Origin: an uncultured Granulosicoccaceae bacterium
Lineage (GTDB): Bacteria > Pseudomonadota > Gammaproteobacteria > CALCKW01
Reading direction: 5' to 3'
Assembly (NCBI GenBank): GCA_937965695.1
Contig: CALCKW010000007.1
Location: 7,106-71,105 of the forward strand
Length of the DNA: 64,000 bases
Shown here: piece after piece, positions 1 to 18,465 of the stretch
How the letters are laid out: every line of letters starts with the position of its first letter
How positions within the stretch are numbered: position 1 is the stretch's first letter
The notes under the pieces: generated by a model
What the model was told of the DNA's origin: nothing
What the model saw: only the letters and a program-made list of their open reading frames with translations
Database searches by the model: none
Program-made: the position numbers and the translations under genes

Positions 1-136
1 CGTTTAGTAGGCAGCACAGCTTCAATGCTGGAGACCGCTGACTCAAGCCTAGTTGTCACCAATTGTGAGTCGATTCACACAAGTCACTAGCAAGCACAGC
101 TGTGAGATACTCCAGCGCAGTAGTAGTGAGCCGTGT

Positions 137-553
137 CTAAGCGCCCAGCAGCGGTAAGTGCTTTCGCTGTTTGTAGGTCAAAGCCAAAGAAAGGCAGTGT
201 TTTAGAATTTCTGTGGGAATTTTCTGCCTGACAGAAAAAACGATTGCTCGGTTGCCATCAAAGTTCATCTCTTCTCCATACAGCTCTCTAAAGGTACTTA
301 TCAAGCTAGTTTGGCAATTGAACAAAACACAGTATTTTTCAGCAGAATCGGGCTTCCATCCAAGACGAATCGCGCTGCCTTTTGTCGCGATGAACGATGG
401 CTCCCCCCAACGAAGGCATTCTTGTAGTGTCGCCACTTGCATCTCATCGGCGACCTGCCTTATCAAGCCGCGAATCTCCAACAGGCGTTTAGAAACATCT
501 GGAGGAAAGTCAGCAAAAACATTTTCTACATTTTCATCGGTGACGCATTCCAT
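137..553 (-). CDS. DUF1801 (YdhG-like) domain protein
   Basis: 138-aa ORF. Sequence pattern resembles the DUF1801/YdhG family. No close named homologue recognised. Confidence 0.45.
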   Translation of the reverse strand: MECVTDENVENVFADFPPDVSKRLLEIRGLIRQVADEMQVATLQECLRWGEPSFIATKGSAIRLGWKPDSAEKYCVLFNCQTSLISTFRELYGEEMNFDGNRAIVFSVRQKIPTEILKHCLSLALTYKQRKHLPLLGA

Positions 554-9205: not shown

Positions 9206-10783
9206 ATGAACCTTGCCAAAAGCAAGTATTGGTTGCGTCTGGCAGCCTGGTTTAAGAAGGACAAGGCAATCGTCACCACCGCTGAGAGACACGACACTGC
9301 GCTGATCATACCGCGCAGACGACCTGCACCCAAGAAAGCCCTGCCCGCCACGGCTGCGGCTTGGTCTAAATGGATTCACGGCCTAGAACGCCTGCCCACG
9401 GGTGAGCGTGCGCGTTCGCTAAGTCAGCAGATCAAATTGTTCAACCGCTCCGAGTGCAAACCCGACGCACGATTGGCTGTGGCGAACAAGCTGCAAAGTT
9501 TCTGGCAAGAACGCCTCGGCGATCTCCTGCCAGTGTTTACTGCACAAGACTCTCCGATGACCGCAAATGCGGCACGCGCTTATCACGAATCTCTGAGCAT
9601 GCTGACGGAGCAAAGCTATTGCTTCATGGCCGCATTAGACGACGATGCCAGCCACAATCTATTGACCGATGTACAACGCACCTGGGCTTGCCTAGGCGGT
9701 ATTCGAGCGTTGCGCCAGAAAATAGAAATCTTATTAGACCGCTATCACACTATCCCTGTTGGTTTACTCGGCGATCTTTACAGCCTTTATCGGCTAGCAC
9801 GAAGAGGTGGTTACAACAATTTGCAGCTCAAAAACCACCCCGAGACTGTTGAACATGCCTTCAAACATGCTTTGATGCTGACAGTGGTTGACGCTTGGGG
9901 ATTGCGTCAGGGAGAACTTCGACGCTACAGTGAAAAATTACAACTCTGGTGCAAGGATGTCAGTTTACGCGACCGAGCCAACAAAAGCGGTACCGGCTGC
10001 TACGCCGTAGACCTAAACAGCGACAGCTTACCCGCCGCCTATGAGTTTAGCGACGTTGACCCAAACATTTTTTGGTTAGACACCAGCGAGTTACTCTCTC
10101 AATTGCAAATGAGTTGCGACAGTGCCGTGCGATCTGATGCCGATTCAGAAGCACCTCGCAGCCTTAGCACCGCGACACTAAATCACCTGCACCGCACCTG
10201 GCTGTCTCGACCAGTACGTATGAGCGCACGCGCGCACCGTGCAGATGCGGCTGCGCTTGAGATTGGTTTGAAAGACATTCACAGCCGAATGGAGCACGGT
10301 GTTCGATTTGGATTGCCGCCTAATCCAGAGTGGCAACTCAACAATCAAAGTACCGAAGGCCTAGGACTGATAAAAACTCGCGACACGGCACTACCGCTTC
10401 ATGTAGGAGAACTCGTCGCGGTCAGCGGCCTTAGCCGTGATGGAGGCAACTCAGTTCTACGCATTGGCACCACGCAGTGGTTGCGCTATGACATCGCCGG
10501 AGATCTGCGTTGCGGCATACACCTGATTGCTAATAATGCTCGACCCGTTATCGTCAGCCACAGCGTAGACGGTAGCGAGAACGCCCGCGTCAGCCATGAG
10601 TGCTTGTATGTCTCACCCGAACCCGGAATGGCTTACGCCACATTGATTGCCCCACCGCGTGATTTTGCGGCGGGACAAGTTATCGCTCTGCACCATAACG
10701 GACGAGCGGGAAAAAAATGGCGCCTGACCAGCCAGACACGCCACACAAATTCAGTCGCGTGTTATCGCATGGAACCCATTTAA
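9206..10783 (+). CDS. Hypothetical protein (525 aa)
   Basis: Long ORF with an ATG start and coding-like composition. No confident family. The C-terminal ~120 aa is beta-rich and possibly PilZ-like (weak). Convergent with the T4CP-like gene. Confidence 0.4.
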   Translation: MNLAKSKYWLRLAAWFKKDKAIVTTAERHDTALIIPRRRPAPKKALPATAAAWSKWIHGLERLPTGERARSLSQQIKLFNRSECKPDARLAVANKLQSFWQERLGDLLPVFTAQDSPMTANAARAYHESLSMLTEQSYCFMAALDDDASHNLLTDVQRTWACLGGIRALRQKIEILLDRYHTIPVGLLGDLYSLYRLARRGGYNNLQLKNHPETVEHAFKHALMLTVVDAWGLRQGELRRYSEKLQLWCKDVSLRDRANKSGTGCYAVDLNSDSLPAAYEFSDVDPNIFWLDTSELLSQLQMSCDSAVRSDADSEAPRSLSTATLNHLHRTWLSRPVRMSARAHRADAAALEIGLKDIHSRMEHGVRFGLPPNPEWQLNNQSTEGLGLIKTRDTALPLHVGELVAVSGLSRDGGNSVLRIGTTQWLRYDIAGDLRCGIHLIANNARPVIVSHSVDGSENARVSHECLYVSPEPGMAYATLIAPPRDFAAGQVIALHHNGRAGKKWRLTSQTRHTNSVACYRMEPI

Positions 10784-10789
10784 AGCCGG

Positions 10790-12310
10790 TTACCCACGAC
10801 GTCTGCGTTTCGCATCAAACAACACGATGTTGGCAGCAGGCGGAATCTTGAGCGATTGCGGTTCAAACAAATTAAGCTGGGTGTTTACACGCTTTAAATG
10901 CAGCCGGTTGTCGTCGAAGTGGTTTCTAAACATCGCATCGTTGAGATAGTCCACTTTCTTAAGAATTACCGTGCGCTTGCTACCCTCGTATAAAACCGCC
11001 AACTGGTCGCGCTCCAGCTCCAGTAGCATTTCGCCGTCGACATCCCCAAGTAAAGCTGCATAGTCATTGGCCACCCGCATGTTGCCAGGACCAAAGAGCT
11101 GCAAAGTTGCACAATTATTAAGCAACATTTCCCAGTCCTCGGCGTAGTTTTTTCGCAGTTGACTAAGGTCTTGCCAAAGTGTCCAAACCCGGACACCCAG
11201 CCCGCGCAGCATCGACATCGCCATCGGTAAAGTCTCCACACGGCCAATCGTTCCAGCTTCATCGATCAAGAACAGTGTTCGTTCGTCTGGTGCATGCCTA
11301 CGGGTAGCCAGCGCCATTGTCAGCGCACTGATCCAAAGCCGTAAAAGATTTTTGTGGGAGTGTAACTTGTGGCCAGGGACCACAAAATAAATCGTGAGAG
11401 ACTCGCCGTCGATAATGTGTTGCAACGGAAAACTCGAGAGATCCGTCGCCGCTCTTACAGATTCTGAGCCAAACAGCTGAACGTGATGTTGAGCAGACGA
11501 CTGCACTGATGGCCGAGTTGTGCCCTGCGCATGCTGAAGAAAAGCACTGAACTCCTGCTTAGCTAGCTTGCTTTTAACTTCACCACTGTCCAACAGCTGG
11601 ATTAAGAGCTCGCTAAAATCACTGTCATTGAACATATCCCTAAGTTGACTTATACAACACTTCTCTCTGTCACCACAGGTGGCCAGATGCGCGATCATAC
11701 CGGACAAGATCCCTTTGGCGGTTTCACTCCAAAATGCTTCCTTGTGACAAGATTCGTGACCAACAATCTCGTCAGCTAAACTCATCGCCGCATCGTCTAT
11801 CTCAACATCAGGCAAGAAGAGAATATCCATAGGATTAAACCCCGCAGTTACCTGCCCGCAAACCTTCCAAGGGTCGATACAAATCACTCGATGCCCCATC
11901 TCTTGGCGACGGCGCGATGTAATATGATGTAGTTCGCCTTTGGCATCCATCACAATCATCGGGCCGGTGAACTCTAACAATGCAGGCACAGCGGCACCTC
12001 GAGTTTTACCGGATCCAGTAGGTGCGATGGTTATTAAATGCCCTTCACCGCCCACTTCAAGCAATTCAGGTCTTTGAGGCGATTTTTTTTGGAGATCTTG
12101 GGTGAAGCCTAAGCCACCCCCCGTTTGAGGGATAGTCCAGCCGAGGGGGAGTTCGTCAACAACAAAGGGATATTCATTTTCTTGCACAGTCGTATTCCTT
12201 ATCGGGTGAGTGAGGATACTTAGTGAATGATGCTGGAGGTGTGAGCAATCGCTGGAGCGCCACCTTTGACGATAAACAGCAAAAGCAAACATCTCTAACT
12301 CAGCAATCAC
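10790..12310 (-). CDS. Soluble TraG/VirD4-like type IV coupling protein (T4CP) family ATPase lacking the N-terminal TM domain
   Basis: Walker A HLITIAPTGSGKTRGAAVPALLEFTGPMIVMDAKGEL...RVICIDPW is the TraG/VirD4 signature. Walker B is LFLIDEAGTIGRV. No hydrophobic N-terminus. The start may be GTG 12310 or the RBS-preceded GTG at 12187. Confidence 0.7.
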   Translation of the reverse strand: MIAELEMFAFAVYRQRWRSSDCSHLQHHSLSILTHPIRNTTVQENEYPFVVDELPLGWTIPQTGGGLGFTQDLQKKSPQRPELLEVGGEGHLITIAPTGSGKTRGAAVPALLEFTGPMIVMDAKGELHHITSRRRQEMGHRVICIDPWKVCGQVTAGFNPMDILFLPDVEIDDAAMSLADEIVGHESCHKEAFWSETAKGILSGMIAHLATCGDREKCCISQLRDMFNDSDFSELLIQLLDSGEVKSKLAKQEFSAFLQHAQGTTRPSVQSSAQHHVQLFGSESVRAATDLSSFPLQHIIDGESLTIYFVVPGHKLHSHKNLLRLWISALTMALATRRHAPDERTLFLIDEAGTIGRVETLPMAMSMLRGLGVRVWTLWQDLSQLRKNYAEDWEMLLNNCATLQLFGPGNMRVANDYAALLGDVDGEMLLELERDQLAVLYEGSKRTVILKKVDYLNDAMFRNHFDDNRLHLKRVNTQLNLFEPQSLKIPPAANIVLFDAKRRRRG

Positions 12311-12908
12311 CTACTGCCTTGTGGGCAGGGATCACATCATCACCCTATAAATAATTTAGGCAAGCATTTTTTACCCTTTAAATACAGGTGCGCCCCCGTG
12401 CTTTATCACTTGGTAAGATAAATACATCAAGTATGTTGACTTATAACACTAGATTTAATTACATCTATGGCCCTTTGCGATGATAGAAATTCTGTACAAT
12501 TCAAATCTTTGCTGAACTCTTATGAGAGTTAATGGAGAAAAAGACTATTCTGATAATCTAAGAAATCACAAACATTACATTTTTGTTATATTTGACATTA
12601 GGACACCGCGAGCTTTCTCTTGTAGAAACCCGGAGGCTTTTATATCCAGCTACACGACCTGAGACTCAGATCAAAAAGCCAGAGCTGCAATATAGAAACA
12701 ATGAATTTTCGAAGAATGGATAAAAAGTACTGATGGGACAGTCGCAGCGCTTTCACGACATGTAGTATTACACGGCCTCAGAGAAAATTTACAACAAGAG
12801 AACCAAGCGATCTAAGGAAGTTTTTATGCCCAATGCGCTTGTCGTATTGAAGCATTGCAAGGTCAAAGCAAGAAAGAAAAATCCGGCCTCATTCAAGAGA
12901 TGGGAGTT

Positions 12909-13688
12909 TTATGTCAGCTGTTGTCGATGTTGTTTTACCCAGCTACGCACTTGCCCCAGCAGGTTTTCAGCAGCATAACGTCCAGCAATACCTTCAGCCA
13001 GTTGATGAGTCACCCCTTGACGGCGAAACACCAAGGAATAATATTCGTGGCCTTTCTCATCGTAGCCCAGTGTCTCTGAAGTGCGCTTAGTGAATATGCG
13101 TTCCGCTTCTGGCAATTCGACACTTTGCTGATACAGCGGTTTATCAAAAAAACTGCGTCTGACTCGGACCTCGTCATCAGCCATATAAACCTCTAAACGA
13201 AGACCCCAAGACCAGAAACCCAACCAGAGAAAAATAAGACCCGCGGCGCTAGATAGCCCACCGAAAAGCCAAAACAACGACCCTGCAACAACAGCATAGT
13301 TGAAGAAATAGACCCCACTTCCTAACAACATCAACCCCATAAAGAGCATGCACAACGATGAAGATAGAAGCCAGCCAGACCGGCTAACCAATTGGAGCGA
13401 ATGGCGGTCGCTGTCCAATGAGATTCGTTCAACTGCAACAGACTCTGTCCTAGCTGACGATTGGACCTCGCATGCTGCACTACACCGCTCTGATGTGGCG
13501 GTTGGATGACTCTTGAAAGCAGATTCAAAATGACGCCAGAGTTGCCGGATCACTCTATTTGAATCACCGATAACGGTGTTAACTGACAAACCGGCAGCTA
13601 AGCCCGCCACAATTTTAGATTTTGACTTCAGCCCATATTGAAGCTTTGTCGCCCAGTTTCCAGTCATGCAAATGCTCTCGTGATCCAA
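12909..13688 (-). CDS. Membrane protein with 2 TM helices plus a C-terminal cytoplasmic domain, paralogous to the C-terminus of the 15037..16806 product
   Basis: Residues ~90-259 (ISLDSDRHSLQLVSRSG...WSWGLRLEVYMADDEVRVRRSFFDKPLYQ...EYYSLV...IAEGIAGRYAAENLL) align with the 589-aa protein C-terminus (ISLISDSDALQLISRSG...WSWGRKLEVVMQADELWLVRSLFGKALYQ...EYFALV...IAESIEGRHAAEALL). Confidence 0.5.
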   Translation of the reverse strand: MDHESICMTGNWATKLQYGLKSKSKIVAGLAAGLSVNTVIGDSNRVIRQLWRHFESAFKSHPTATSERCSAACEVQSSARTESVAVERISLDSDRHSLQLVSRSGWLLSSSLCMLFMGLMLLGSGVYFFNYAVVAGSLFWLFGGLSSAAGLIFLWLGFWSWGLRLEVYMADDEVRVRRSFFDKPLYQQSVELPEAERIFTKRTSETLGYDEKGHEYYSLVFRRQGVTHQLAEGIAGRYAAENLLGQVRSWVKQHRQQLT

Positions 13689-13753
13689 ATCATTCTTGGA
13701 AACACTATCAGCTCAAAACATGCCACTAGTTTCATAGTTCAGCGAAAATTCTA

Positions 13754-14389
13754 TCAATCCAGCAAGCTACTCCAATCTAGTGGGCTATTGAACCAATACT
13801 CAGGCGAGTTGGCTTGTAACTCAGACCGAGAGCCATGACCCCAAAGCACTGCACCTGCAGCGATACCATTTTTGTGCGCTGCTTGTAAATCGACACCGCG
13901 ATCACCAATCATTAAGGCATTCCTGTCGATCCCACCCGCGGTGAGCAACGCTTCAATTTGCATCCACTTACGTACTCCAATACCTCCACCACTGACAAAT
14001 TCAAAGAAGTGCTGGAGATCAAACAGCTGTAGAACCATTCTCGCTGTGCGTTCAGGCTTTGAGGTGCACACCGCCAGTCGCTGACCATGCTGCTTAAGCA
14101 GCTCCAAGCTTTCTCTGATTTCCGGGTAGAGCGTATTTTCCTTGAAACCCACGTCTAAATAGCGTTCGCGGTACTTGGCAACCATCGACGCAATTAACGC
14201 CGTATCACTGCTCCCTATCAAGTCACCAAGGCTCTCTTCTAGGGGTGGCCCAATGTAGACAGACAGATCCGCTTCATTCCGTGGATTAAACCCATAGAAT
14301 TCAAGCGCAAAGTTGAATGAACGGGCAATTCCCACTAAGGGATCACTCAGCGTTCCATCTAAGTCAAAGAGCAGGGTATTGAAGGCCAC
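13754..14389 (-). CDS. HAD-IA family hydrolase (phosphoglycolate phosphatase-like)
   Basis: Motif I is FDLDGTL. Also carries the Ser/Thr motif II, K...GDRGVD motif III and a cap domain. Confidence 0.7.
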   Translation of the reverse strand: MAFNTLLFDLDGTLSDPLVGIARSFNFALEFYGFNPRNEADLSVYIGPPLEESLGDLIGSSDTALIASMVAKYRERYLDVGFKENTLYPEIRESLELLKQHGQRLAVCTSKPERTARMVLQLFDLQHFFEFVSGGGIGVRKWMQIEALLTAGGIDRNALMIGDRGVDLQAAHKNGIAAGAVLWGHGSRSELQANSPEYWFNSPLDWSSLLD

Positions 14390-14419
14390 TATAGAATTTG
14401 GCCCGTGAGGATTGTCTGA

Positions 14420-14857
14420 CTATTCATCCGGTTGCCGAGAACCAGCTATAGCAATAACTCCCGTGTCAGGCCACTCGCCATAACTGTTCATTTGGCGCGT
14501 GGGTTCGTCCCAACTTGCACGGTGATCCATGAAAATATGCGCAGAAGGTGATTGCTCAAAATCTGAATCTAACGAACCTAGCCGGACTCGAACAAAAGGT
14601 GGATCATCACCCACCTTGGTAAACAGGGGGCTGCCACAACTTTTACAAAAGTGCCGTCGTTTTCCGGGCGATGATTCGTAAATACCAATATTGTCTTCAC
14701 CGTGTTGAATCTGCAACTCACTTGTCGGCACAGAAATGTTGGCGCCAAAAGCACTGCCCGAGGCTTTTCGACAACTGCGGCAGTGGCAGTAGACAAAATC
14801 ACCGACAGAGCGCGGGAAACTAAACTGAACCGCTTTACACAAACAAGAAGCTTCCAT
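14420..14857 (-). CDS. GFA/CENP-V family zinc-binding protein (glutathione-dependent formaldehyde-activating enzyme-like)
   Basis: CLC...CHCRSCRK...CKSCGSPLF cysteine pattern is typical of the GFA fold. Confidence 0.65.
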   Translation of the reverse strand: MEASCLCKAVQFSFPRSVGDFVYCHCRSCRKASGSAFGANISVPTSELQIQHGEDNIGIYESSPGKRRHFCKSCGSPLFTKVGDDPPFVRVRLGSLDSDFEQSPSAHIFMDHRASWDEPTRQMNSYGEWPDTGVIAIAGSRQPDE

Positions 14858-15036
14858 CGCATTGACTCACTCGTGGAGAAACCAGAGCACCAGCTTGCCA
14901 TAGACGGACTAGCCATGAAACACAATGGCGACATAGAGTGCCTAGACAACAGACTGGGCGGATCTGCCGTTTCTCCGAATTGTGCGAGCGCCCTTAAGCT
15001 TAACCGCACCTTGCCACACCACTTCGTTGTGGAGGA

Positions 15037-16806
15037 TCACACGGTGTCCGCTTCACGGTCAGGTTCGCGTGAATGCTGAGACCGTATCCATGCTTGGATT
15101 TCTGCTAAAAGCGCTTCAGCTGCATGGCGGCCTTCTATGCTTTCAGCAATTTTTTGCTTTTTGCCGTTGGCGTGTGAAACCAAGGCGAAGTATTCTACGG
15201 TCTTCTGACCTGAAGCGGTTGAAGTCATGATGCTTTTGGCTTGTATGTCATCGGCACCAGGCAAGGGCAAAGTACGCTGGTACAACGCTTTGCCAAACAA
15301 ACTGCGAACAAGCCACAACTCGTCTGCCTGCATAACAACTTCAAGTTTCCGGCCCCATGACCAAATACCACCCCAAACGATCAACGATCCAATTAAACTA
15401 AAAACAATACCGATAAACCAACTTCCGGAGTCGCCAACCCAGGCAAAGTACACTAGAGCAAATCCGATCGAAGCAAAGATTCCGCCTATACCGCTGAACA
15501 CAAGCGCATTGGATGTGTTACGACCAGATCGACTGATTAGCTGCAGTGCATCAGAATCGCTGATTAGTGAGATCTGCTCGTTGGCGCTGGATTTAGCATC
15601 TGCTTGTTTTCGTTCTTTTGCTTGTGCTCTAAAAGTGGCTGAACCAATATCCGCTGTTTTAGCGACACCTTGAATCACCGGCACTTCCCAAGTGCGTTTG
15701 AAAGGCTGGCTATCGCCGTTGACAGAGAACTCTCCTTCGGCACGCAGCAACCACTGTATTTTGGTGCGACCTTCAACATCTGTCGCAGGCAGTTCATTGG
15801 GCACATCAAAACAAAAAGTGTGCTTACTTCCAGCCGCGCCTCTCTCCGCAAATGCTTGTTGATGATCCTGCCAGATTAAGCTGCGATGCGAAGACTTACG
15901 ACCACGGGTGATTTTTACACACTCGAGGTGCACCATAAGCACTTGGTTTGAGCTGTCAGCCGAAACGTCAAAAGAACCACCAACCTGCCCGCCAGCACAA
16001 CCGGGCAAAGGGTCCGCCTTTAGCAGAGCAGGGCCAAAAAGCCGTAGATTTTTTACTGTTTTAAATCCGTGGTATAAAAAGCCTAAGCCGATTAAAGGAA
16101 CCATCAAAACAAACAAAATCGCATGTTTACCTTTTGCAACTTCAGCTGGCATCAGCATAAGTAAAGGCACAGAAACCAGCAAAATAAACGCTGCGATAAA
16201 GAAAAAAACCTTGCCGATAAAACCTTCTTGAGGCTTTATACCCTCAGCAAATTGCTCCAACGGCTGCGGATGAATTGTTTTACGTGTAGAAAGCCACATC
16301 ACACCGCAACCAGCGCCACCAAAGATCAGCAAGAACACGACGCCGATGATCGCTTTAAACCAACGAAAGCTTCGGTCTAGCAGAGCTTCTTGGGGATCAC
16401 TCGGATTTACCCATGCTTGCAATTCAGATCGACTCGATTTATTGCGAACTTGTGATTCCAACTGGCGCCAGTAGTCTTCATCACTGTCAAAACTGTCGTC
16501 AAGAGTAATTTGGGAACCCACGTACTGAGCACCCCGAAACTGATAACTGTAAGAGGCTCTGAGGCTATAGACCCGAGTTGTTTTACCATCACTGCGATGC
16601 AGCTCACTGTCGCGCTGGATCGACATCAAAGAGGTCGGCACCGCTTGCCATGATGCACTGCCAAAATAACCGACGACTTGAGGTCCAGAGATAAACACGC
16701 AGGCCAGCAAGCCCGCCAAAACGAAGATAGCGCCGAAAATAACACCACCATTTAACCAAGAACGTTTAGCTTTCGAGCTCTGCTGATCCATTACACCGCG
16801 CCTCAT
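15037..16806 (-). CDS. Multi-domain membrane protein: N-terminal DUF3592 domain, central TM/beta-rich region, and a C-terminal 2-TM + cytoplasmic module shared with the 12909..13688 product
   Basis: The N-terminus has TM-beta-domain-TM with AWVNPSDPQEALL, which is DUF3592-like. The C-terminal ~180 aa is paralogous to the neighbouring 259-aa protein. Confidence 0.6.
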   Translation of the reverse strand: MRRGVMDQQSSKAKRSWLNGGVIFGAIFVLAGLLACVFISGPQVVGYFGSASWQAVPTSLMSIQRDSELHRSDGKTTRVYSLRASYSYQFRGAQYVGSQITLDDSFDSDEDYWRQLESQVRNKSSRSELQAWVNPSDPQEALLDRSFRWFKAIIGVVFLLIFGGAGCGVMWLSTRKTIHPQPLEQFAEGIKPQEGFIGKVFFFIAAFILLVSVPLLMLMPAEVAKGKHAILFVLMVPLIGLGFLYHGFKTVKNLRLFGPALLKADPLPGCAGGQVGGSFDVSADSSNQVLMVHLECVKITRGRKSSHRSLIWQDHQQAFAERGAAGSKHTFCFDVPNELPATDVEGRTKIQWLLRAEGEFSVNGDSQPFKRTWEVPVIQGVAKTADIGSATFRAQAKERKQADAKSSANEQISLISDSDALQLISRSGRNTSNALVFSGIGGIFASIGFALVYFAWVGDSGSWFIGIVFSLIGSLIVWGGIWSWGRKLEVVMQADELWLVRSLFGKALYQRTLPLPGADDIQAKSIMTSTASGQKTVEYFALVSHANGKKQKIAESIEGRHAAEALLAEIQAWIRSQHSREPDREADTV

Positions 16807-16911
16807 GACGATAAGTCTGATGCGCAGTTAATAGCGGTATTCGTGCCTATCGAACCCACGCTGTCCGTTAAAAGCTGTCATGTTGGTCACCTCATGCAAC
16901 CAGTAAATCTT

Positions 16912-17005
16912 CTAGGGAGCTTCAGATTTAGTTCGGTCAGTGACTTTGGTGTGAAAAATTTGGACCCAGCAAGGCGCTAACATGACTTGATCTGAGGTTC
17001 CCTAG
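16912..17005. mobile_element. MITE-like intergenic repeat, copy B (94 bp) with 9-bp TIRs
   Basis: CTAGGGAGC ... GTTCCCTAG, 8 of 9 bases complementary. The internal sequence is homologous to copy A at 5723-5891 without the ~70-bp insert. Confidence 0.5.
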
Positions 17006-17046
17006 TATCTCCACCAAAAAGCTACTGCGTTATCTAAGGCCGCGTT

Positions 17047-18465
17047 TCAACCCCTCTCTGAGTGCCTCTGCAGCAAAGTCCACAGGGCTTCTAGGTGTTC
17101 TCGTTCGGTGGCTTCCACCCCAACAGATACCCGCACCATCCAGTTACCGCCCAACATACTCGGTGACATAAAGGCTTCGCCACTGTCGTTGATTTCACCC
17201 ACCCAGCGCAGCGTGTGCCTATCCAGCGCCTCACCCGATAGCTTTCCGCCAGGGTTATGCCGAATGGCCAGAGTTTGCAGTGTCAACGGGGTAAGCATTT
17301 CCCAATCTGGATGTGCTGCCACTTGATCGGCAAGCCAACGGGCATTTTGCAAATCGCGTCGCAATCTCTTGCGCAGCGCGTCAGGACCATCCAGCGCAAG
17401 ATGAAACCAGAGCTTCAAGGCACGAAAGCGACGACCCAAAGGAATGCCCCAATCACGATACTGAGTGACTTCTCCGTCAGTACTGCCACGTAAGTAGCTT
17501 GGATTTGTGGACAACACTTGCTGCAAATGATCGGTGTCACGGACGTAAAAAAGAGAGCAGTCGAGTATAGTGCCCAGCCATTTGTGCGGGTTCCAAGCCA
17601 TCGAATCAGCACGCTCAACGCCTTGCCACAGGTGTCGGCACTCGGGCAATAACATGGCGCTGCCCGCCATGGCCGCATCAACATGCAACCAGATATTTTG
17701 CTCTGCACAAACATCGGCAATCTCATCAATAGAATCAAATGCCGTGACTGCAGTAGAGCCTGAGCAGGCGACGACGCAAGCAGGGGTCATGCCTGCTGTA
17801 GTGTCTTCACGTATGCAACGAGCCAAAGCTGAGACGTCCATCGCATGGGTTTGCGGATCAACGTCCACCATCACCAAGTTTGAATCACCTATGCCCGCCA
17901 TTTGCACGGCCTTAGCGACAGACGAATGTGCCTGTGCTGTGGTGTATACCCGCAAGGGCGATTTGAGTGCCTGCAATCCCCCTGCGTTTTTGCACAGTTT
18001 GCTGGCGCGCTCGCGCGCGAGCAATATACCCACCAGACAAGCCGAAGAAGCCGTGTCGTGAATGGTGCCCTGCCATTGCTCCGACAGTCCAGTAAGCTCG
18101 CGCATCCAGTCGCAGGTGACTTCTTCTACTTCCGTTAGCGCCGGGCAACTCTCCCAGCTGATGCCAAGTGTGCCCATACCGGCGCAGGCGATGTCTCCCA
18201 ATACCGAAGCGGGACTTGCATTTGAAGGGAACCAGCCATAGTGCATAGGGTGCTGTACTTGTGTCACACCCGGCACCACCACGGTATCGAGCGCTTGCAG
18301 CAGACTTTGCATAGATTGCGGCTGGTCGGGCAACGGTGGCATATTCTTGCTGACCTCACCCGGGCCAACTTGCGCAAGCACCGGTCGCTCTGGAACGGAT
18401 AGGCGGTAGTCTGCAATCCAGTCTATAAGCTGGTGGCCTGCTTCGCGAAAGCTCTCGTTGTCCAC
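17047..18465 (-). CDS. Pyridoxal-phosphate-dependent aromatic-L-amino-acid (tyrosine/tryptophan-type) decarboxylase, group II
   Basis: 472 aa. HYGWFPSNASPASVLGDI..., the SSACLVG region and the Lys-containing PLP region are typical of DDC/TDC family decarboxylases. Confidence 0.85.
   Translation of the reverse strand: MDNESFREAGHQLIDWIADYRLSVPERPVLAQVGPGEVSKNMPPLPDQPQSMQSLLQALDTVVVPGVTQVQHPMHYGWFPSNASPASVLGDIACAGMGTLGISWESCPALTEVEEVTCDWMRELTGLSEQWQGTIHDTASSACLVGILLARERASKLCKNAGGLQALKSPLRVYTTAQAHSSVAKAVQMAGIGDSNLVMVDVDPQTHAMDVSALARCIREDTTAGMTPACVVACSGSTAVTAFDSIDEIADVCAEQNIWLHVDAAMAGSAMLLPECRHLWQGVERADSMAWNPHKWLGTILDCSLFYVRDTDHLQQVLSTNPSYLRGSTDGEVTQYRDWGIPLGRRFRALKLWFHLALDGPDALRKRLRRDLQNARWLADQVAAHPDWEMLTPLTLQTLAIRHNPGGKLSGEALDRHTLRWVGEINDSGEAFMSPSMLGGNWMVRVSVGVEATEREHLEALWTLLQRHSERG

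Follow-up and report, generated by a model that had tools for sequence, protein, structure and literature searches.

How two neighbouring membrane proteins of one bacterial locus came to end in the same domain, and what that domain does in each of them, is the question raised by a 64,000-nucleotide stretch of an uncultured Granulosicoccaceae genome (assembly GCA_937965695.1, contig CALCKW010000007.1, positions 7,106 to 71,105; hereafter the window, to which coordinates refer unless a locus of another genome is named). A full-length gene in the window encodes a 589-amino acid (aa) protein and a shorter gene a 259-aa open reading frame (ORF). An earlier reading of the DNA, here called the original prediction, had proposed that both proteins carry a duplicated module consisting of two transmembrane (TM) helices and a small cytoplasmic domain, and that they form a hetero-oligomeric membrane complex or a sensor/effector pair. 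The explanation that best covers the results, and that we hold to be rather probable, is that the module is an autonomous membrane unit with a predicted PH-like fold split by its TM hairpin, that the short gene is a maintained truncated paralogue of the full-length gene, and that the proteins would act as adaptors or chaperones by analogy with the human protein EROS.

Homology of the shared module

In BLASTP the long and the short protein align over 249 columns at 35% identity (E=3e-35), and all of the motifs on which the original prediction had relied (ISLxSD..LQLxSRSG, WSWG, KLEV.M..DE, LYQ, EY..LV and AE.I.GR.AAE.LL) fall inside this alignment; the module boundaries in Table 1 translate as given. 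A profile hidden Markov model (HMM) of the full-length family independently matches the short protein from about model position 392 to the end (E=2e-38), and the two module copies are 38% identical. That the match merely reflects the composition of hydrophobic or low-complexity stretches has virtually no chance of being right and is already refuted. Some 55 of the roughly 175 aligned positions are transmembrane, but once the helices are removed, which was the masking test set beforehand, the remaining soluble tails (104 vs 97 aa) match at E=4e-23 with 39% identity, and searching with a module profile yields 459 proteins at E<=1e-10. As judged from sequence, homology of a module of about 175 residues in both proteins can be regarded as certain. 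Column conservation across the family singles out a set of small residues in the hairpin (module positions G39, G46, A53 and G71), all of which are kept in copy 2, the copy of the short protein. Copy 2 alone carries R27W, directly before the hairpin, and F42L.

The module had been thought novel to this locus, and in this respect the first reading did not hold. Searched against 1.84 billion representatives of clusters formed at 50% identity, the module profile returns 1032 matches at E<=1e-3 (459 at the stricter threshold given above), and the module is C-terminal in every case. Among the best 150 matches, 69 are at least 540 aa long, 45 are 360-539 aa, and 36 are shorter; roughly every second top match is thus a protein of ~575 aa, comparable to the 589-aa one. 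DUF3592 is present in three of three scanned proteins of at least 540 aa (P0030, P0118 and P0154); Pfam scans for it were negative in three proteins of 360-539 aa (P0032, P0035 and P0061) and in the smaller P0054. Many of the short members are metagenome fragments cut at the N-terminus. P0043 (194 aa) is an intact stand-alone module gene in the middle of a 44-kb contig. A word-indexed search with the 589-aa protein as query recovered 26 homologues besides the self-hit, whose alignments cover 67-98% of the query and which belong to Alcanivorax, Alloalcanivorax, Pseudomonadales and other gammaproteobacterial metagenome-assembled genomes. The C-terminal module is present in 16 of the 16 homologues aligned, and public records name homologues of the 589-aa protein 'DUF3592 domain-containing protein'. 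The same type of search with a broad module alignment yielded six short proteins only, and tblastn of the 589-aa protein against plasmids gave no match.

That the module belongs to no named family was correct, as no Pfam, NCBIfam or PADLOC model covers it. Pfam returned no match for the short protein and, for 14 module sequences at E<=10, only weak matches (Phage_holin_3_6, DUF202 and Tetraspanin) that are taken to be driven by the TM helices; PADLOC and NCBIfam gave nothing for either protein except a spurious TM-driven match, and a PDB sequence search with the module profile gave chance matches only. On sequence evidence, then, a large unnamed family of bacterial proteins has this module as its conserved C-terminal domain.

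Origin of the short gene

The two family genes, described at first as neighbours, do lie on the same strand within 3.9 kb of each other but are separated by two others (13754..14857), one for GFA and one for a HAD phosphatase. These two genes lie outside the module and provide the context that fixes the ancestral gene order. In four relatives (L003/L004, L040 and L041, where L004 repeats the genes of L003, as L001 repeats those of the window) the order is GFA, HAD and then a full-length family gene; in L039, GFA is followed by the full-length gene, and in L040 the gene next after the full-length gene encodes a TraG-like ATPase, which is the flank that the 259-aa gene has in the window. The GFA, HAD, TraG-like and FimW_N-like genes of the window and L003 are 59-78% identical. 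The DNA between HAD and the short gene also aligns with the relatives' spacer between HAD and the family gene, a conserved upstream motif included, and the ATG at 13667, from which the public gene call reads 252 aa, matches their start codons and is, on this alignment, the likely start of the short gene. Shared gene order, spacer and start alignment therefore identify the short gene as the positional descendant of an ancestral full-length gene from which some 330-390 codons are gone, namely those for DUF3592, TM1-4 and the arrestin-like domain described below, and the 589-aa gene as a copy in a new slot, between a decarboxylase gene and GFA.

A neighbour-joining tree of 45 modules agrees with the synteny, and together they bear out the proposed duplication within the locus. 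The module of the short protein (W259) pairs with that of P0029 (bootstrap 100), and the pair nests, on a long branch, in a clade with the module of the 589-aa protein (W589), P0002-P0005 and P0037 (bootstrap 98). W589 is the nearest full-length module to W259 (38.5% identity vs 32-35% for the others). The stand-alone P0043 groups with a different full-length protein, and reduction to the bare module must therefore have occurred more than once. Taken together, the short gene is very probably a truncated paralogue that has stayed in the ancestral slot under selection.

Ahead of the module the short gene has some 75 codons of a different character. Their comparison with the full-length profile gave an hhalign probability of 0.2, and no homology was found in any reading frame. 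The BLASTP alignment had stretched into this region, but its derivation from the arrestin-like domain found no support from hmmsearch, hhalign, three-frame hmmsearch, blastn or tblastx.

Descent by duplication leaves room for the proposal that the 589-aa and 259-aa proteins join through their shared modules in a hetero-oligomeric membrane complex or a regulator/effector pair, and that the duplication was kept for that purpose. We consider this unlikely. The two genes are on one strand with only two small genes and no convincing terminator between them, the short copy is under purifying selection (see below), and bacterial PH domains often oligomerise. However, a search for other loci with a duplicated module, suggested along with the original prediction, came back empty, with a second module within about 8 kb in 0 of the 30 other loci (where the contig extends so far), and around the stand-alone module gene P0043 (L037) no full-length member of the family lies within 5 kb in either direction. 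The two copies have diverged to the 38% identity noted above, and the short one carries its own substitutions at conserved positions. The contig of L002, which holds the short gene's only close relative, is 1 kb long. With no second copy in the loci covered and a stand-alone gene on its own, the case for a complex comes down to proximity.

Selection on the short gene

The orthologue of the short gene in L002 encodes P0029, the sole close homologue of W259 (58% identity). It comes from a different sample, is truncated in the same way and has the leader in common with the window gene, which excludes an assembly artefact as the source of the short form. Between these two copies the module retains 69% aa identity, with a ratio of nonsynonymous to synonymous substitution rates (dN/dS) of about 0.12 at a dS of about 1.7, a ratio that is only rough because this dS is near saturation; over the first 75 codons, aa identity falls to 33% and dN/dS rises to about 0.54. 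The invariant residues G39, L86 and R99 are all present in the short protein, as are most near-invariant ones. The purifying selection on the module indicates a functional gene, and we conclude from these comparisons that the short gene is maintained and that the constraint falls on the module.

The alternative that the 259-aa ORF is a pseudogene remnant, left by a large deletion in the ancestral full-length gene, is distinctly improbable. It would fit a gene that sits in the ancestral slot without some 60% of its former length, whose N-terminal codons are weakly constrained and lack a homologue, whose leader reading frame differs between the two known copies, and which carries R27W and F42L at near-invariant positions. 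A decaying gene would not readily explain, however, why the 177-codon module is intact and constrained in two lineages separated by dS>1, why the upstream motif, the start codon and the invariant residues are all kept, or why independent stand-alone modules exist elsewhere. A selected truncated paralogue and independent stand-alone versions together amount to a natural domain dissection, from which the module emerges as an autonomous unit.

Predicted fold of the module

An AlphaFold2 (AF2) model of the module, built from a 14-sequence alignment with a predicted local distance difference test score (pLDDT) of 83.7, runs in the order b1, b2, TM helix, TM helix, b3-b8 and a long C-terminal helix, and the alignment shows b1-b2 to be conserved across the family. 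Foldseek against the PDB returned a single match at E<=0.001, namely EROS/CYBC1 in 8kei chain D (E=6.7e-5, probability 1.00, TM-score 0.54/0.60 over 178 columns, 14% identity). Below EROS, eukaryotic PH and PTB domains make up most of the 50 matches listed, and a search of the BFVD viral folds gave no significant match. The structure 8kei contains EROS (CYBC1) bound to NOX2-p22phox. The PH domain of EROS is described as 'separated by H1 and H2'; its interior holds the N-terminal segment, and H2 leads into six strands and helix H4 (PMC11161758). Two strands likewise precede the hairpin in our model, which therefore places the hairpin within the PH fold. On these models it is highly probable that the module is a PH-like beta-sandwich split by a TM hairpin after strand 2, as in EROS/CYBC1.

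The topology first proposed for the module was thus right in its parts (a TM hairpin, a small beta-rich PH-like domain and a C-terminal helical cap) but not in their bPH_2/YdbS order, since b1-b2 come before the hairpin. That the module is nevertheless an ordinary bPH_2 domain (PF03703) of the YdbS/YdbT type, two TM helices followed by a bacterial PH domain, is very improbable. The two share a two-TM anchor, a PH-like sandwich and a C-terminal helix, and a bacterial PH structure (3hsa_E) is among the Foldseek matches. That match is weak, however (E=0.22, TM-score 0.27/0.39); 0 of 14 module sequences match PF03703 or any other PH-family model at E<=10, the whole long and short proteins have no PH-family Pfam match, and the TM helices that in bPH_2 precede a complete domain here sit inside the fold, after two conserved strands.

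Architecture of the full-length protein

The AF2 model of the 589-aa protein (22 sequences, pLDDT 81.8) contains six TM helices and three predicted soluble domains, of which the module is the last. The DUF3592 call made for this protein proved sound: PF12158 scores 30.6 bits against a cut-off of 25.3, and the domain lies between TM1 and TM2. It accounts, however, for only about 80 of the 589 residues and lies outside the shared module, and PF12158 has no match in the 259-aa protein or in the module.

The top PDB matches of the full-length model in Foldseek are arrestin folds, led by the ARRDC3 N-lobe (E=1.9e-6) and followed by the TXNIP N-domain, Bacillus Spo0M (E=2e-5), VPS26 and arrestins; E-values range from 2e-6 to 2e-4, and target TM-scores are 0.5-0.6 for single-lobe structures (about 0.6 for the TXNIP N-domain). 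These matches are assigned to the middle domain because it contains the only beta-sandwich of matching size, and Pfam gave no arrestin or Spo0M match in the long protein. In the model the domain resembles the N-lobes of ARRDC3 and TXNIP as well as VPS26 and Spo0M; it differs from these proteins in being a single, membrane-tethered lobe, and it is no part of the duplicated module. The N-terminus of the long protein holds five K/R residues, and this charge together with the six TM helices would place the DUF3592 domain in the periplasm and the arrestin-like and PH domains in the cytoplasm.

Comparison with known systems and possible function

EROS/CYBC1 is a human chaperone of NOX2 in the membrane of the endoplasmic reticulum, and its loss causes chronic granulomatous disease. 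The module and EROS appear to share an N-terminal segment, an antiparallel TM hairpin, six strands, a C-terminal helix and a cytoplasmic PH-like domain. They differ in that the module's TM helices are longer (24-27 residues vs 15-20), in that the module is bacterial and usually fused to arrestin-like and DUF3592 domains, and in that their sequences show no detectable similarity (14% identity when structurally aligned). Ycf4 (PF02392), a photosystem I assembly factor that the literature calls the plant counterpart of EROS, is comparable in that it is held in the membrane by two TM helices, has a soluble domain and serves as an assembly scaffold.

The proteins show no catalytic signature. By analogy with EROS, the hairpin might pack on the TM helices of a partner membrane protein by way of its conserved small residues, and the cytoplasmic PH sandwich, joined in the long form by the arrestin-like sandwich, might bind the partner's cytoplasmic parts; the short form would then be a minimal version with the same binding unit. 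That the protein is a membrane-embedded adaptor, assembly factor or chaperone and not an enzyme is, on this analogy, possible but doubtful. It is tempting to go further and to view the module as a true prokaryotic relative of the EROS/Ycf4-type assembly chaperones of membrane proteins and the family as widespread bacterial inner-membrane adaptors (arrestin-like plus split PH plus periplasmic DUF3592), from which the module was released at this locus, either as a separate chaperone of the size of EROS or to regulate the full-length protein, possibly expressed from a -24/-12-type promoter. This we regard as quite unlikely.

Neighbourhoods point to no particular partner. A conserved functional gene partner was sought and the idea dropped, as the neighbourhoods proved to be lineage-specific; ORFs beside the family gene in Chromatiales look, by eye only, like GlnE and IlvE. 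In 22 loci of the Alcanivorax group the family gene lies after groES-groEL and overlaps a rhomboid protease gene at the 3' end of the latter, which suggests that there it is co-transcribed with a membrane protease, an arrangement that counts as one lineage only. In L005 the two genes occupy 9421-10023 and 10001-11701, and in this locus and 21 others (L007-L027 and L032) the overlap is about 23 nt and the block reads groES, groEL, rhomboid, family gene, leuA.

Several points weigh against the explanation favoured here, that of an autonomous split-PH module with a maintained truncated paralogue and an EROS-like mode of action. The first 75 codons of the short gene may be either a diverged remnant or new sequence, and the gene is known from two genomes only; its two changes, R27W and F42L, affect positions otherwise conserved in 23 of 24 sequences, and the dN/dS values are subject to the saturation noted above. 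Both structures are predicted, from shallow alignments (14 and 22 sequences), and sidedness is read from the positive-inside rule alone. The likeness to EROS is one of fold only, there being neither a Pfam match nor a PDB sequence match to 8kei, and hhalign of the module profile against an EROS sequence, whose numbering agrees with 19 cited residues, gave a probability of 0.2. The family, finally, has no informative conserved partner gene, and its neighbourhoods differ by lineage.

The split-PH fold type was already known from EROS and the PH superfamily, and DUF3592 had been named but left uncharacterised. What appears to be new is the view, based on models, that the module stands for a large, unmodelled family of bacterial proteins with a split-PH topology like that of EROS, its predicted fusion to an arrestin-like domain, and a documented case in which a gene was cut down to the bare module and has been kept by selection. 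To our knowledge, no bacterial proteins predicted to have the split-PH-plus-hairpin design of EROS have been described before. More than 1000 clusters at 50% identity that lie outside current libraries thereby gain a predicted fold and topology. An EROS-like design joined to an arrestin-like domain would bear on the origin of both adaptor folds, and cultivated strains suited to functional work are available in Alcanivorax, with its overlap of family gene and rhomboid protease gene.

Upstream motif, leader and neighbouring genes

The upstream motif has the consensus TGGCAYG-N3-TG[AC]GC, followed by TTTGT, and lies 35-68 nt before the annotated start of the family gene in six genomes: in the window and at L002 35-48, L003 9541-9554, L040 2762-2775, L041 1565-1578 and L006 7942-7955, five loci that stand for five other genomes. 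A variant occurs near L039 5474-5487. The spacing resembles that of a -24/-12 (sigma-54) promoter; measured against the canonical sigma-54 consensus the motif has three mismatches, and it was set aside as a look-alike only. Upstream of the 589-aa gene the motif is not intact, and a degenerate trace is present there together with a separate GGCACG-N6-GC at about 16843-16856. Scans for sigma-70 promoters and terminators gave background level only, and Rfam over 12000..17200 gave no match.

A 23-codon upstream ORF, MKLVACFELIVFPRMIWITRAFA, at 13664-13735 (-), overlaps the ATG of the short gene in an ATGA. In L002 one extra T puts the leader DNA in frame with the gene (285 aa); the corresponding T-run of the window is at 13670-13672, and the difference in frame may be genuine or stem from misassembly of the homopolymer. 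The leader is the best-conserved DNA of the short-gene locus.

Table 1. Positions of the two family genes, their predicted domains and the surrounding features. Nucleotide positions are those of the window; residues are those of the 589-aa protein unless stated otherwise.
Feature	Residues or extent	Position	Strand	Basis or remark
Full-length gene	589 aa	15037..16806	-	ORF; 26 full-length homologues besides self-hit
Short paralogue	259-aa ORF from TTG at 13688	12909..13688	-	ORF list
Module copy 1 (long protein)	403-589 (187 aa)	15040..15600	-	Translation; AF2 model; Foldseek
Module copy 2 (short protein)	last 177 aa	12912..13442	-	Translation; full-length-family HMM
Copy 1 TM hairpin, predicted	431-485	15352..15516	-	AF2 helices 29-55 and 60-83 (module numbering)
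Copy 2 TM hairpin, predicted		13203..13367	-	Alignment to copy 1
N-terminal part of short gene	~75 codons	13443..13667	-	Poorly conserved, without detectable relative
TM1, predicted	20-49			AF2
DUF3592 beta-rich domain	54-147	16366..16647	-	PF12158 at 69-147; AF2 strands 54-133
TM2, TM3 and TM4, predicted	149-176, 194-224, 228-257			AF2
Arrestin-N-lobe-like beta-sandwich, predicted	262-379	15670..16023	-	AF2 strands; Foldseek
Linker helix, predicted	390-411			AF2
Elements of module copy 1, predicted	b1-b2 412-425; TM5 431-457; TM6 462-485; b3-b8 486-558; final helix 560-579			AF2
Conserved upstream motif GGCATGTTTTGAGC		13711..13724	-	GG-N10-GC spacing; common to relatives' full-length genes
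GFA gene		14420..14857	-	Pfam; between long and short genes
HAD phosphatase gene		13754..14389	-	Pfam; between long and short genes
VirD4/TraG-like coupling ATPase		10790-12310	-	Model matches start past the N-terminal (membrane-anchor) region
FimW_N-like protein	525 aa	9206-10783	+	L003 orthologue (78% identical) annotated FimW_N

Beyond the short gene lie the TraG-like and FimW_N-like genes, which adjoin each other and are kept as a pair in L003; the TraG-like gene also occurs in L040. A Pfam scan of the FimW_N-like protein of the window gave no match, and no further type IV secretion genes were found in 9-20 kb of the window. A 600-bp AT-rich non-coding gap (12311-12908) separates the TraG-like gene from the short gene; at its position L003 and L039 have mscL and a yjeF-type gene. 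The window lacks both of these, and also the LtrA and ion-channel genes found upstream of GFA in L003. The family gene diverges faster than its neighbours: W589 and P0004 are 48% identical, and the GFA, HAD, TraG-like and FimW_N-like genes of the same two genomes have the 59-78% reported above.

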